A DNA stretch of 64,000 bases from a virus: the IMG/VR virus record IMGVR_UViG_3300042539_000280, positions 64,001 to 128,000 of that record; one strand, written 5' to 3'. The position numbers were made by a program, and so were the translations under genes. Under the pieces are notes generated by a model, which saw nothing but the letters and a program-made list of their open reading frames with translations, did not search any database and was not told where the DNA came from. Shown here piece by piece: positions 58,737-63,961 of the stretch; position 1 is the stretch's first letter; each line of letters begins with the position of its first letter.

Positions 58737-60452
58737 TTAGACTTTCACATACTTTGAGGGATCAAACTTATCTTTGGAAATACGACGAACTTTACGTTCT
58801 GGATCGTTTTTACCTGTTACTTGAATGGTCTTAGAAGGACCTTCAACACCAAGACCGGCCTTCACCTGGGTAGAAACCTTACGTTTCATGATACGAAAAG
58901 CAGATGCCTTCTTGACAGAACCCATGGCTTCGTCCATTTGTTCTTTCTTCTTGGCCTTCCATGCGGTTGCAAAAGCAATAGACTTTTCCTTGGCGGTTAG
59001 ACCGTCCTTGGAATAACCCTTCTTGATGTGTTTGACCATACGTTCAAACTTGGCACCTGGAGGTGCTTTTTCTTCTAGTCTATTCATAGCCATTTGTATA
59101 CCAGCGGCTCTTTTGTTAGCAGTCTTTCTTTCTTTTGGAGAAAGATCAGAAAGATATGGATCCTTTGCCTTACCAACTAATGTATCTAGTTGCTTACCAG
59201 CCTTCTTTTCATATCTTGCTACAGTTGATCGCTTTAGTTCATCAATCTGTTCATCTTCCATAAGACCCTTTGTATGAAAGTGTCTTTTCATAGCACGACG
59301 GATTTCACCTTTATGAACATCTCCACCCATATGCTTGGAGATAGCAGCGTCACGTTCACGAGTTGACTGACCGCCTACCTGTCCTGGCGCAGTCTTAAAT
59401 GCTTTGATAATATCATCATAGCGTTTTTCTTTACTCTGCTTGATTTCATCAATCTGTTCTTTCTTTTCAAAAGATCCATGCTTTGAATACTCATTGCTGT
59501 CCTTGCCATAACCATGACGACGAGCCATAGACTTTAGTTGTTCCTCTGATTTACCAGCGAACTTCTTAGCCTTTTCTTCTGGTGTCATGTTGGCAATACG
59601 CTGCTTATGCTTGATAACAGAAGCAGGCATACGACCTTCTTCAACAGTTTCTTCCATATAAGGATGCTTAGGAGCAGAGGCACCAACCTTTGCTTTACCT
59701 GTCATCTTCTTATGTGCTAGAGAGATACCCTTTTCACGGGTCTTTTCTCTACGGCCGGCGGCCTTGGCATCGTCAGAAGTGGCCGCAGGATATTGACCTG
59801 GGTTCTTCTTGAAATGCTTGATATCACCTAGTTCCTGTTCAGCACCTTTACGATAACGAACAAGTTTACCTAATGATACCTCGTTTAGACCCTTTTCGGA
59901 ATCCGCTACTGCTTCTTTGTTACCCTTCTTCTTTTCATCAGAGGTAACATCGTGCATTGGTTCCTTTTCAGCACTACGTTGGCTCATGGTTGCCTTGTCA
60001 TCGGCACATTCTTTCATGGTGATTTCGGCCATGTCTAGCATCTTGTCTAGTTCGGCCTTATCAACAACCTTAGCCATGCATGAGAACATACCAAGCATAC
60101 CTCTATAATCAAAGAATAGGTAATACTTTTCTGGTACTTCACGAATGAACTCACCGGAGTCATTCATGCCCATCTTCTCACCAAACTGTACCATTTCATA
60201 TACCTCAATACCCTTATGACCTTCAAGGAAGGTTTTCTTGGGTAGAATGATACTGAAATATGCCAACGCCTTTGACACCTTACGGAGAGTAATGTAAGGG
60301 GTCACATGAGAGCGTGAACAAATGCCGGAGAGAATGGCATTGATCTGATCACGAACTGCCTCGTTACGAAGATCAAAATTGCCATCCTGAACCATTGCGG
60401 TTGGAAGAACTTCCTCACTTATAAATTTTTGGAATGATTTCATGTTCATCAC
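58737..60452 (-). CDS. Putative capsid internal/prohead core polyprotein
   Basis: N-terminal MKSFQKFISE (compare the T4 internal-protein targeting sequence); basic modules separated by LNE, MEE, VEE, EQIDE (twice), LEE and EQMDE. Confidence 0.6.
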   Translation of the reverse strand: MMNMKSFQKFISEEVLPTAMVQDGNFDLRNEAVRDQINAILSGICSRSHVTPYITLRKVSKALAYFSIILPKKTFLEGHKGIEVYEMVQFGEKMGMNDSGEFIREVPEKYYLFFDYRGMLGMFSCMAKVVDKAELDKMLDMAEITMKECADDKATMSQRSAEKEPMHDVTSDEKKKGNKEAVADSEKGLNEVSLGKLVRYRKGAEQELGDIKHFKKNPGQYPAATSDDAKAAGRREKTREKGISLAHKKMTGKAKVGASAPKHPYMEETVEEGRMPASVIKHKQRIANMTPEEKAKKFAGKSEEQLKSMARRHGYGKDSNEYSKHGSFEKKEQIDEIKQSKEKRYDDIIKAFKTAPGQVGGQSTRERDAAISKHMGGDVHKGEIRRAMKRHFHTKGLMEDEQIDELKRSTVARYEKKAGKQLDTLVGKAKDPYLSDLSPKERKTANKRAAGIQMAMNRLEEKAPPGAKFERMVKHIKKGYSKDGLTAKEKSIAFATAWKAKKKEQMDEAMGSVKKASAFRIMKRKVSTQVKAGLGVEGPSKTIQVTGKNDPERKVRRISKDKFDPSKYVKV

Positions 60453-61092: not shown

Positions 61093-61266
61093 TTAGTTGT
61101 AAGTTTGACCTACTACGCCTGGGACCTCGGGATTCTGAACTACAGGATCCGCAGGTTGACCAGTCTGGGTCTTTCCTGGGTTTATTAGTTTTTTATCGGC
61201 GGCCTTTTGCAAGGCCACCTTTGTATCTTCCTTGGCAATCTTCTTGCTGTCGGGTTTCTTTTTCAT
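61093..61266 (-). CDS. 57-aa protein, not in the ORF track
   Basis: MKKKPDSKKIAKEDTKVALQKAADKKLINPGKTQTGQPADPVVQNPEVPGVVGQTYN; ATG overlaps the upstream TAA. Confidence 0.55.
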   Translation of the reverse strand: MKKKPDSKKIAKEDTKVALQKAADKKLINPGKTQTGQPADPVVQNPEVPGVVGQTYN

Positions 61267-62774
61267 TATACGATCCTATATTTATTATCACCCACTGAAA
61301 CATAACTTTCAGCAACCATCTTCTTTTCTTCTTGCTGAGTACCACCAAACTTACCTCTGTTGGCCCATGCCTTGCCGGCAGGACTATCAGCAGAATAAGA
61401 TGGTTCAGGTGCCGCAGTAACAGAAGCCTTCACCTCTGGTGCCGGAGCAGGTGCGGTTTCAGGTGGTTTATTCTGTGAAATAAACCCACCAGTGTCACTT
61501 GTGGCATTTTTAGGTTTAGCTGCTGATCCTGCAATATCCGGAACACCTGTTGGCACTCTTGTAGTGGTAGTAGGTGTTCTTTCTGGATTAAGTCTAACAC
61601 TACTAAATGTGTCAGGTTTTTCCGCTGCCTTCATGCCAGTATCTTGTTGTTTGATAGGTGTTGGTGAAAGAGATCCAGAAGAAGTGCCAGCTGTAGTGAG
61701 GCCGGCGACTCTTGTTAGACCTTGTCTACCAGGACCATATGATGCTCGATCAGTCGAAACATTTTTTGGTGCTGTGTCTGCCTTAGTTGCAGAAGAAGCA
61801 GTAGCAGGTGTTGATGACTTACCAACACTTGTCACCTTTTGCTGTGACATAGGCACAAACTTTTCTTCTGGTGCCTTTGCAGTTCCTTTGCCTCGAATGT
61901 TTGACTGATATGTACCAGTTTCACCAGTTTTTGGATTTGTCCATTTGAATTGGCCAGTTGACTTAGCACCCATTGATCCTGCTTCCTTACGGGCCTGTGA
62001 GAAGGCCTGCTTGAAAGAAGATGGTTCTGTCTTTGGTGCTGCCGCTGGTTTAGCAACAGGAGCAGACATTGTACCAGGTTCTTTTGTCTGGACAGGAGCA
62101 ATCTTAGAAGGTAGTTCCTGATTCTTGACAGAAGGTGCTAGTTCTCCACGTCTTGACATAGAACCAACCATACCAGTTTGTGTGTTCTTGACAGATGCAC
62201 TTGGTGTAGTTGATGAACGATAACCTGCAACTTGTGTCTTGCCTGTATCTGTTTTACGGAATACAGGATTACCTGGTTCGGTCTTAGTGGAATCTGGAAC
62301 TGCAAGACCAGCAACACCAAGGGCACGACCTGCCACCTTTGCTGCTATACCTTTTGCAACAGAACTGGCGGCCGCCACAGTAGCCTTAGGTGTGGCCATA
62401 GCGGCACGGCCGGCGCCACTCATTTTGGTCACCATTTGACTTGGTGATGACTTTGCCATCTTCTGTGCTACTTGACTACCACCCTGTGAGAATGATGTAG
62501 AACCACCAACTGAGGATGGTTTCATTGATCCAGTAGCTTGCTGACTAAAACTTGGGTTGAATCGGTTAGAGATATTTCTCTTTACGTCAGTTGTGGTTGG
62601 TTTCATTGTACCGAAACTGGAACCCATTCTAGCACCACCTGATTTTACAGTTGTGCCTTGTGACGCAAAACTCTGACCTGCACGATAAGTATTACCCTGT
62701 AGTCTTTGCTGCGATGCGCTTGCCTGACGACGAACACCTGGAACAGGCATTTCGACGTTAGGTGGCATCGACAT
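61266..62774 (-). CDS. Low-complexity basic virion/internal protein (probably the C-terminal part of a frameshift fusion)
   Basis: Ser/Thr/Ala/Lys/Pro-rich; SFKQAFSQARK..G....FKW motif; C-terminal MVAE|SYV; no SD before the ATG. Confidence 0.55.
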   Translation of the reverse strand: MSMPPNVEMPVPGVRRQASASQQRLQGNTYRAGQSFASQGTTVKSGGARMGSSFGTMKPTTTDVKRNISNRFNPSFSQQATGSMKPSSVGGSTSFSQGGSQVAQKMAKSSPSQMVTKMSGAGRAAMATPKATVAAASSVAKGIAAKVAGRALGVAGLAVPDSTKTEPGNPVFRKTDTGKTQVAGYRSSTTPSASVKNTQTGMVGSMSRRGELAPSVKNQELPSKIAPVQTKEPGTMSAPVAKPAAAPKTEPSSFKQAFSQARKEAGSMGAKSTGQFKWTNPKTGETGTYQSNIRGKGTAKAPEEKFVPMSQQKVTSVGKSSTPATASSATKADTAPKNVSTDRASYGPGRQGLTRVAGLTTAGTSSGSLSPTPIKQQDTGMKAAEKPDTFSSVRLNPERTPTTTTRVPTGVPDIAGSAAKPKNATSDTGGFISQNKPPETAPAPAPEVKASVTAAPEPSYSADSPAGKAWANRGKFGGTQQEEKKMVAESYVSVGDNKYRIV

Positions 62775-62812
62775 TGCTAGTTCGTTTACCGACTTACCCG
62801 TTCCCGGTGCGC

Positions 62813-63961
62813 CTAGAAACCCTGGTCTTCCTTCATGTGCTTGGCACGGATCTTGGCAAGGATAGCACCTGCTACCTTCTTACCACGTTCCTCTGAACCA
62901 TAACGTTCGCCGGCCTTCTTAGCAATCATCTTGAATGATTTGCCTGGCTTACCAATGTCTTTACCAGCACGGGCAGCCTTGGCAGAATATGCGGCTTCAT
63001 TTACTGTTTCTTCTGGTAGATGACCTGGCTTGGTGTGTGAACCAAGACGACGCTTGATATTGCCTTTTAGTGTGGCAGTATCTTGCTTATGAACCTTACC
63101 AGATTTTGTCATTCTGTCTGTTGGATGGCGACGATCACGGGCAATGGAATCTTCTTTACCACGATCTTCACCACGGCGAACTAGACCTACAGATGATTGA
63201 GCGCCAGCACGTTCGGCATTATGTGCAGTCTTTTTACCAAACTTTCTCTTGATTAGACCATGTAGTTTGCTGGTGTCTCTTTCTTGTGCTTCTTTTTCTC
63301 TATAAGCAGAGATAGCAGCCTTCTTTGAAACTTCATCAATCTGTTCATCTTCCTTGACCACATTCTGCATACGTTGTGTGGTTGGATTGCCTGGTGTTAG
63401 TGAAGATGCTGCACCTGGATAGGACTTAGGTGTTGATGGATCTTCCTTAGGAGCAGACTTAGTAACGTCGCCTGAACCTTGAACTGATGGATCTCTTTTT
63501 ACAACGTCAAGGCCTTCGCCCATCTTTTTCTTGCCACCCATCTGGTCTTTACCGAGACGACCAGCAACAACGTCACCACGGGTAACTTTGTCATATGGAG
63601 GATAGTTGTTAGCAAGATTACCATCATTGCCTTCTTTTGTTAGTTCACGAGCAGTTCTCTTTGGTGACTGACCTGGGAATCCGCCCATCTTTTTGATGTG
63701 TTCCATGCCAGTCTTTTCTTCATGCTCTTTCTTCTTTTCTTTATTCTCTTTATTACCTTCTTTCATGCACTTATAGGCTTCTTCTAGTCTGGCATCATAT
63801 GCTGCTAGTTGCTCTCTAACAACTGCCTTGCGAGAATATACACCAAACTCCTCGTTGACAAGGGCCTCGGCTTCACGGCGCATGTCGCCATCTTTTCTTG
63901 CTTCCATGACCGCTTGAACTAGAGGGTCCTTCTTGGTTAGAAATGGGTTGTTTCCAAACAT
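62813..63961 (-). CDS. Putative capsid internal/prohead core polyprotein
   Basis: Lys/Glu-rich; modules separated by VME, VNEE, LEE, MKE, TKE, MGE, EQIDE, LPEETVNE; LANNYPPYDKVTRGDV and YSAKAARAGKDIGKPGK modules; AAGGA SD. Confidence 0.6.
   Translation of the reverse strand: MFGNNPFLTKKDPLVQAVMEARKDGDMRREAEALVNEEFGVYSRKAVVREQLAAYDARLEEAYKCMKEGNKENKEKKKEHEEKTGMEHIKKMGGFPGQSPKRTARELTKEGNDGNLANNYPPYDKVTRGDVVAGRLGKDQMGGKKKMGEGLDVVKRDPSVQGSGDVTKSAPKEDPSTPKSYPGAASSLTPGNPTTQRMQNVVKEDEQIDEVSKKAAISAYREKEAQERDTSKLHGLIKRKFGKKTAHNAERAGAQSSVGLVRRGEDRGKEDSIARDRRHPTDRMTKSGKVHKQDTATLKGNIKRRLGSHTKPGHLPEETVNEAAYSAKAARAGKDIGKPGKSFKMIAKKAGERYGSEERGKKVAGAILAKIRAKHMKEDQGF

Follow-up and report, generated by a model that had tools for sequence, protein, structure and literature searches.

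A probable programmed -1 frameshift at a conserved U_UUY slip site in a modular gene of freshwater T4-like phages

Introduction

In gene 10 of phage T7 (10A/10B), a late gene, tRNA-Phe slips by -1 on U_UUC near the end of the upstream frame, so that a minor C-terminally extended form is made beside the major short form, and the heptamer involved is non-canonical and of the G_GU type (from a 2016 recoding review; PMC5009743). In Escherichia coli, the tetramers that promote -1 shifting rank A_AAG >> U_UUC > U_UUU; they are barely shifty alone, give a few per cent at most if a 3' stimulator is provided and, in the case of U_UU[U,C], serve the IS1 and IS3 elements, where shifting depends on a nearby 3' structure (PMC4066793). 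The E. coli dnaX gene yields two products of fixed sequence, tau and gamma, with a hairpin 5 to 6 nucleotides (nt) past the slip site, and the tail assembly chaperone genes G/GT carry a conserved -1 shift near the end of a late phage gene that gives a longer minor product. Here we analyze a locus in a 64,000-nt stretch of an uncultured freshwater T4-like phage (bases 64001-128000 of the 164-kb IMG/VR virus record IMGVR_UViG_3300042539_000280; hereafter, the window). Two open reading frames (ORFs) of this locus, ORF A and the downstream ORF B, very probably form one gene with a programmed -1 frameshift, as judged from comparison of related sequences. We found no prior description of this frameshift in the literature, and the available parts of the 2016 review mention only the gene 60 bypass for phage T4 and do not mention "T4-like" (PMC5009743).

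The signal that we propose would have three parts: a U_UUY tetramer, an abutting 0-frame stop codon and, with a spacing of 5 nt from the tetramer, a small hairpin. It would share with T7 gene 10 the slip of tRNA-Phe near the end of the upstream frame of a late gene, a related heptamer in the window, and a minor extended form beside a major short one. It differs from T7 in that the gene has no homology to capsid proteins (Pfam, PHROGs), the extension of 516 amino acids (aa) is longer than the first part, the stop abuts the slip codon, and a local mini-hairpin is found where T7 relies on a distant 3' element as stimulator. The tetramer is the U_UU[C/U] of IS1 and IS3, among the three most shift-prone, but it sits here in a phage gene instead of a transposase gene, the 0-frame stop always abuts the tetramer, and the IS3 pseudoknot and the IS911 junction are far stronger than the 3' structure found here. 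The distance of the hairpin recalls dnaX, whose motif is A_AAA_AAG as opposed to U_UUY and whose shifted frame gives the short product, whereas in the window the shifted frame would give the long one. Four relatives in which the two frames are fused come closer to dnaX, as a shift there would meet an immediate stop and give the short form. Unlike the tail assembly chaperone genes, the gene does not lie between the tail tube and tape measure genes, and it matches no chaperone family (PHROG, Pfam).

Results

The features on which the argument rests are as follows (window positions).

62813-63961, minus strand: ORF A (0 frame), 382 aa plus stop, with a conserved N-terminal domain of ~70 aa and lysine-rich modules.
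62816-62822, minus strand: heptamer G GGT TTC, the putative slip site, containing the conserved tetramer T_TTC (62819-62816).
62813-62815, minus strand: 0-frame stop TAG, directly after the Phe codon; predicted end of the short form.
61266-62816, minus strand: -1 frame continuation, 516 codons plus stop, containing the annotated 502-aa ORF 62774-61266 (ORF B).
62781-62816, minus strand: linker L-G-A-P-G-T-G-K-S-V-N-E, encoded only in the -1 frame, upstream of all ORF B starts and ending in a V-x-E site.
62796-62810, minus strand: small hairpin, with its first base 5 nt past the slip site and a loop of GGAA (stem G.U, C-G, bulged A, C-G, C-G, G-C).
62786-62845, minus strand: 60-nt core with the highest nucleotide conservation, comprising the ORF A end, slip site, stop, hairpin and GGTAAGTCGGT.

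ORF A is preceded by the Shine-Dalgarno sequence AAGGA 8 nt before its ATG (63974-63970), with TAAATA just 5' of it. The C-terminal part of its product is a conserved helical module that ends KHMKED-QGF, and the gene's 3' end reads GAA GAC CAG GGT TTC TAG on the minus strand. An earlier note, made from the letters of the window alone, had pointed to this CAG GGT TTC TAG end of ORF 63961-62813, with the heptamer at 62822-62816, and had proposed that a -1 shift continues into ORF 62774-61266, giving short and long forms of a capsid-packaged protein in a fixed ratio, the long one of about 900 aa. The sequence bears out the arrangement. Read from GGG (62822), the -1 frame encodes G-F-L-G-A-P-G-T-G-K-S-V-N-E-L-A-M and has no stop until 61268-61266, for a predicted long form of 382 + 516 = 898 aa that ends VGDNKYRIV. 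Its predicted junction is K-E-D-Q-G-F-L-G-A-P-G-T-G-K, with EDQGFLGAPGTGK as the junction tryptic peptide and EDQSFLNAQATGK as its counterpart in relatives. The VNE that the note had seen both in the linker and in the upstream protein is indeed present in ORF A at two places, residues 35-37 and 320-322. Readthrough of the TAG would yield nothing, since the 0 frame meets a second stop 8 codons on. The window contains 87 stop-to-stop frames of at least 100 codons, 18 of which have a -1 frame open for at least 100 codons beyond the stop; among its plausible genes, only the ORF A/ORF B pair has an in-frame X_XXY_YYZ in the -1 overlap.

Relatives were collected by an ORF A protein-seeded scan of viral contigs, which left the core sequence free and gave 30 loci, and by two DNA pattern scans, a stricter one on viral contigs and a looser one, with most of the hairpin left free, on metagenome contigs. 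The metagenome scan returned at least 120 matches, mostly due to chance, and 17 of the matches listed belong to the family. With viral and metagenome contigs and all scans pooled, there are at least 18 distinct real junction variants; among those listed, 14 are split and 4 are fused. At the protein-seeded loci, members of the split class end ORF A with GAA GAC CAG TCT TTC TAA/TAG and keep the -1 frame open for a further 680-1160 nt up to KYRIV, and members of the fused class have one ORF of 513-753 aa with the ORF A N-terminus and the same KYRIV end. Thus, the KYRIV C-terminus is common to both classes. Over all 14 split variants, the -1 frame is open for 430-1530 nt, with the KYRIV end in most. 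One split variant (TCT TTT TAA; L035/L081/L242) has a -1 ORF that ends QQQSVN; the usual C-terminal KYRIV motif is missing or replaced there.

A further census, for which the conserved N-terminal 80 residues were the sole seed, gave 44 loci that could be traced to a stop. In 21 of them the gene was split with a -1 continuation (10 distinct junctions, all at this site), in none was it split with a +1 continuation, and 19 had single ORFs with a YRIV end; the four other loci comprise two with a YRII end, one with another C-terminus and one that is truncated. Identity of ORF A among relatives falls to about 43%. The fused relative L012 is colinear with both parts of the window's gene: ORF A aligns to its residues 1-318 (E 1e-54 and 4e-24), which end KHMKEDSSF, and the -1 product is homologous to its residues 318-660 (E 4e-62). 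The linkers are equal in length, F-NAAQET-GKSVDE in L012 and F-LGAPGT-GKSVNE in the window. Since the alignments meet at L012 residue 318 and the linkers match in length, the join falls exactly at the Phe. Fused L040, like L012, carries the linker in frame. Distant fused relatives lack the cassette, and in them KHMKE[DE] is followed by NLEEL, RQIDEI and similar sequences. A scan dedicated to further fused-type junctions returned known loci only, plus the chance match L246.

At the slip site, T TTY TAR is present in 14/14 split variants, with TTC or TTT as the Phe codon and TAA or TAG as the stop. The codon before Phe is TCT in 11 variants, GGT in the window and L087, and GAT in L049, and the codon after the slip is CUA or UUA (Leu) in every split variant. 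Thus, the split arrangement is kept although the Phe codon, the stop, the preceding codon and the following bases vary. Most relatives read G TCT TTY where the window has G GGT TTC. Conservation of the heptamer in homologues, which the earlier note had named as a check, extends to only part of it: G GGT TTC is confined to the window and L087, whereas the U_UUY tetramer is found in 14/14. Because the preceding codon varies among relatives (TCT, GGT, GAT), the canonical heptamer is a local feature of the window, and the predicted conserved slippery element is the tetramer U_UUY with a stop directly behind it, not a heptamer. A Shine-Dalgarno-like sequence upstream of the site, AAGGAAGA, was considered as a stimulator like that of dnaX and was set aside: it is inseparable from the conserved K-E-D codons and is weakened to AAAGAAGA in 5/18 variants. 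In L007, L047 and L058, the slip site lies within a 4-base-pair (bp) palindrome, GUCU-UUCU-AGAC, that spans tetramer and stop; this palindrome is not kept in the window (GGGUUUCUAGGC).

We asked how these data fit a gene that is simply broken, an ancestral single ORF split by a 1-nt change, with ORF B self-initiated, reinitiated or decaying as a remnant. Single-ORF relatives do exist, termination-reinitiation is frequent in phage operons, and an ATG lies 41 nt past the stop in the window and in several relatives. However, this start is not conserved: the distance from the stop to the first ATG, GTG or TTG in ORF B ranges over 35-389 nt (L010, 104 nt; L087, 203 nt; L023, 389 nt), and 12/14 split variants have no Shine-Dalgarno-like sequence before it. 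For the window, the note's statement that ATG 62774 lacks a Shine-Dalgarno sequence holds over the preceding 18 nt. Furthermore, a conserved L-x-A-x-x-T-G-K-S-V-x-E is encoded upstream of every ORF B start codon, and the linker bears a signature of coding sequence, synonymous variation at Val (GTA/GTC/GTT) and Glu (GAA/GAG). In 14/14 variants the -1 frame is open across the linker, the break always falls at T TTY TAR, nowhere else and never as +1, and nearly all split forms retain an intact KYRIV motif. Nothing resembling a promoter or a terminator lies between the two ORFs on the minus strand. On this comparison, ORF B is unlikely to be initiated independently, and we consider a split gene without recoding improbable as a whole.

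An error of sequencing or assembly, or a pseudogene in one contig, could also mimic a frameshift, as the source is assembled from a metagenome and a 1-nt indel would give exactly such a picture. Yet Logan contigs from lake metagenomes of other studies are identical across the site and show no indel (these are contigs, not raw reads): X2 record 4 spans 62641-63300 and X4 record 15 spans 62769-62946, both without difference to the window. An assembly error of 1 nt, which the earlier note had named as something to exclude, thus finds no trace in these independent contigs. The same frame arrangement recurs in 14 different sequence variants from many assemblies, and we give this explanation almost no credence.

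The two ORFs might instead be joined in the mRNA, if RNA polymerase slipped on a short T run and changed the number of bases in some transcripts. Productive transcriptional slippage typically needs roughly 6-9 identical bases. Two variants have runs of five T, L035 (TCTTTTTAA) and L049 (GATTTTTAG), and the frame outcome would be identical to that of ribosomal slippage; but most variants, including the window, have only three (GGTTTC, TCTTTC), far below that range, and a stop-adjacent tetramer with a hairpin 5 nt on is the layout of a ribosomal signal. Polymerase slippage is accordingly a highly improbable source of the long form.

The 3' structure was examined next to the slip site. RNAalifold on the split variants returned a hairpin of G.U, C-G, bulged A, C-G, N-N and G-C closed by a four-base loop, which is GNRA in 16/18 variants. 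Across the 18 variants, 100% of cells are paired and two pairs covary, with the fourth pair being A-U in 11, C-G in 4 and U-A in 3 and the fifth being G-C in 16, C-G in 1 and U-A in 1. At the most variable pair, the second base of a Pro/Gln/Leu codon is compensated by the third base of the next Thr codon. The covariation score, obtained on variants that are related to one another, was reached by 0/500 shuffles, and slid controls collapsed. On the 3' side of the hairpin, GGTAAGTCGGT is invariant in 7 distinct junctions of the protein-seeded scan, which had left GGTAAGTCGGT free. The earlier note had pointed to another pairing, ACCG...CGGT (62808-62805 with 62791-62788); relatives, with ACAG or ACTG there, do not preserve it, and the conserved hairpin is the one at 62810-62796. 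A second small hairpin, UCG...CGA, was rejected, being weak, broken in some variants and within conserved codons. Rfam gave no match at the junction.

We infer slippage from covariation, conservation, colinearity and indel-free contigs, and -1 slippage of tRNA-Phe from UUY to UUU is the most likely mechanism. In the window, the majority of ribosomes would stop at TAG 62815-62813 and release the 382-aa short form. A fraction would slip back one base, with tRNA-Phe leaving UUC (62818-62816) and re-pairing with UUU (62819-62817); these ribosomes would then read CUA (Leu) and go on, for 516 codons in all, to the 898-aa long form. Two variants of this scheme can be envisaged. The slip of tRNA-Phe might take place in the A site during translocation, which the 5-nt spacing of the hairpin fits, or in the P site with the stop codon in the A site (a "shifty stop"), which fits the abutment of stop and tetramer in 14/14.

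Several points weigh against a programmed frameshift or limit what can be claimed for it. The long form could be rare, because E. coli tetramers without a strong stimulator shift barely above background. The hairpin is very weak, with a 3-bp core of -2.7 to -4.2 kcal/mol in split variants. As it also persists in 4/4 fused variants, it may have some other role or travel along when the conserved core recombines. Among the sequencing runs listed, none was an RNA run holding the stretch. The pattern scan of viral contigs had fixed part of the core sequence, which the protein-seeded scans left free. Finally, owing to shared ancestry and the mosaic nature of the gene, the 14 split junctions should not be counted as independent events.

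The fused variants raise a further possibility. All four that carry the cassette (4/4) read TCT TTT AAY, in which a -1 slip on U_UUU would meet TAA at once. The tetramer, the hairpin and the TGKSVxE linker might form a two-way switch for either gene configuration: split genomes would make the short form in the 0 frame and the long one in the -1 frame, and fused variants would make the long form in the 0 frame and, by a -1 slip, the identical short form. Such a switch would account for the persistence of the hairpin in fused genes, where two compensatory stem variants are seen as well. We regard it as speculative and rather doubtful, since the four fused variants share ancestry and any -1 slip soon terminates anyway. 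If it were true, related phages would have inverted the default frame of the cassette and yet kept both products, and a stop-adjacent tetramer with a tetraloop hairpin of 3-5 bp would represent a minimal type of frameshift signal in its own right.

The gene is a mosaic. L003 and L023 are identical at their ORF A ends and different in ORF B, and fused L110 is similar to split L023 on either side but has an in-frame junction of the L012 type. Contigs of relatives from four lake metagenomes match the window only over 62786-62845, with 5 differences and no gaps, and for this reason the 60-nt core may act as a recombination joint. Searches of 50,697 phage records returned only short module matches for ORF A, in cyanomyovirus "hypothetical/cytidyltransferase" genes and a 735-kb uncultured phage; megablast and tblastn against the same records gave no match for ORF B, and no cultured relative carries the gene. 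One such module, MEHIKKMGGFPGQSPKRTARELTKE at ORF A residues 99-134 (~63560-63667), also starts cyanomyovirus "cytidyltransferase/hypothetical" genes. Another, YSAKAARAGK...KIRAKHMKED at residues 333-370 (~62852-62965), is also present in the 735-kb uncultured phage LR756501. The recurrence of ORF A modules in unrelated phage genes suggests module shuffling.

Sequence searches of Pfam, PHROGs and PDB assigned neither ORF to a family, and the ESM Atlas model is disordered (predicted local distance difference test score, pLDDT, 0.51). Lys, Gly, Ala and Glu are abundant in ORF A, and Ala, Ser, Thr, Gly and Pro in ORF B. The genome encodes baseplate wedge and hub proteins of the T4 type, together with a prohead protease of the gp21 type (PF03420 at G000:39759-40244, E 2.1e-37, exceeding the family cut-off). 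ORF A contains 11 (L/I/V/M)-x-E sites versus 5.5 expected, a number reached by 24/2000 shuffles; the first is at residue 18, and the sites flank conserved modules. ORF B has only two such motifs, the VNE just past the join and one 15 residues before the conserved C-terminus. On the 5' side, the gene is next to one for a P-loop/HExxH protein, and the next gene downstream matches phrog_613 ("head protein"); endolysin and primase genes are also nearby, and the baseplate genes are 40 kb away. T4-like cyanophages show a similar synteny. From the (L/I/V/M)-x-E sites, the gp21-family protease, the neighboring genes and the cyanophage synteny, we infer that the product is a late, virion- or prohead-associated modular protein that would be cut at (L/I/V/M)-x-E by the gp21-type protease. 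The frameshift would then determine how many copies carry the long disordered tail with its conserved KYRIV end.

The protease and the enrichment of ORF A in its sites resemble the setting of the T4 internal proteins and Alt, as does a neighboring 571-aa protein that starts MKSFQKFISE, similar to the T4 targeting sequence. In contrast, ORF A has no capsid-targeting N-terminus of the T4 MKT(Y/F)QEFIAE type, which is cut at L/I-x-E, as it begins MFGNNPFLTKKDPLVQAVME (MFGNNPF...), and it has no homology to IPI-III or Alt. The lysine-rich 571-aa protein is encoded at 58737-60452 (minus strand) with an upstream GTG; its first Met starts MKSFQKFISEE, and its basic modules are separated by EQIDE, EQMDE and TVEE motifs. 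With this targeting-like start and motif-separated modules, it is a stronger candidate for packaging and gp21 processing than is the product of the frameshifted gene.

Two other neighbors were noted. The P-loop/HExxH protein is encoded by a 483-aa ORF at L001 4304-5755 (minus strand), equivalent to window positions 64003-65454 and thus past the window end; it contains HELVHH and the P-loop GTPGSGKDK, and its syntenic genes in cyanophages are annotated "cytidyltransferase" (Syn33_182/183). On the other side, a basic 57-aa ORF at 61093-61266 (minus strand) has its start codon inside the long form's stop (TAATG overlap). Relatives likewise have a small ORF behind the gene, and given both observations, the 57-aa ORF is likely to be translationally coupled.

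Discussion

The case is new and its mechanism familiar: it would be a further example of programmed -1 frameshifting, and with it T4-like phages gain a conserved, comparatively well-supported -1 frameshift. For annotation, the consequence is direct, as gene callers break the gene in two in about half of the contigs of related freshwater T4-like phages. Recognition of the frameshift corrects this and defines a modular protein family of roughly 600-900 aa. The compact natural signal, made of a tetramer, an adjacent stop and a mini-hairpin, is suited to tests of A-site versus P-site slippage in bacteria, for which the natural compensatory variants and the in-frame versions are ready controls. Should the protein be packaged, the shift would govern the proportion of copies with the long disordered tail.

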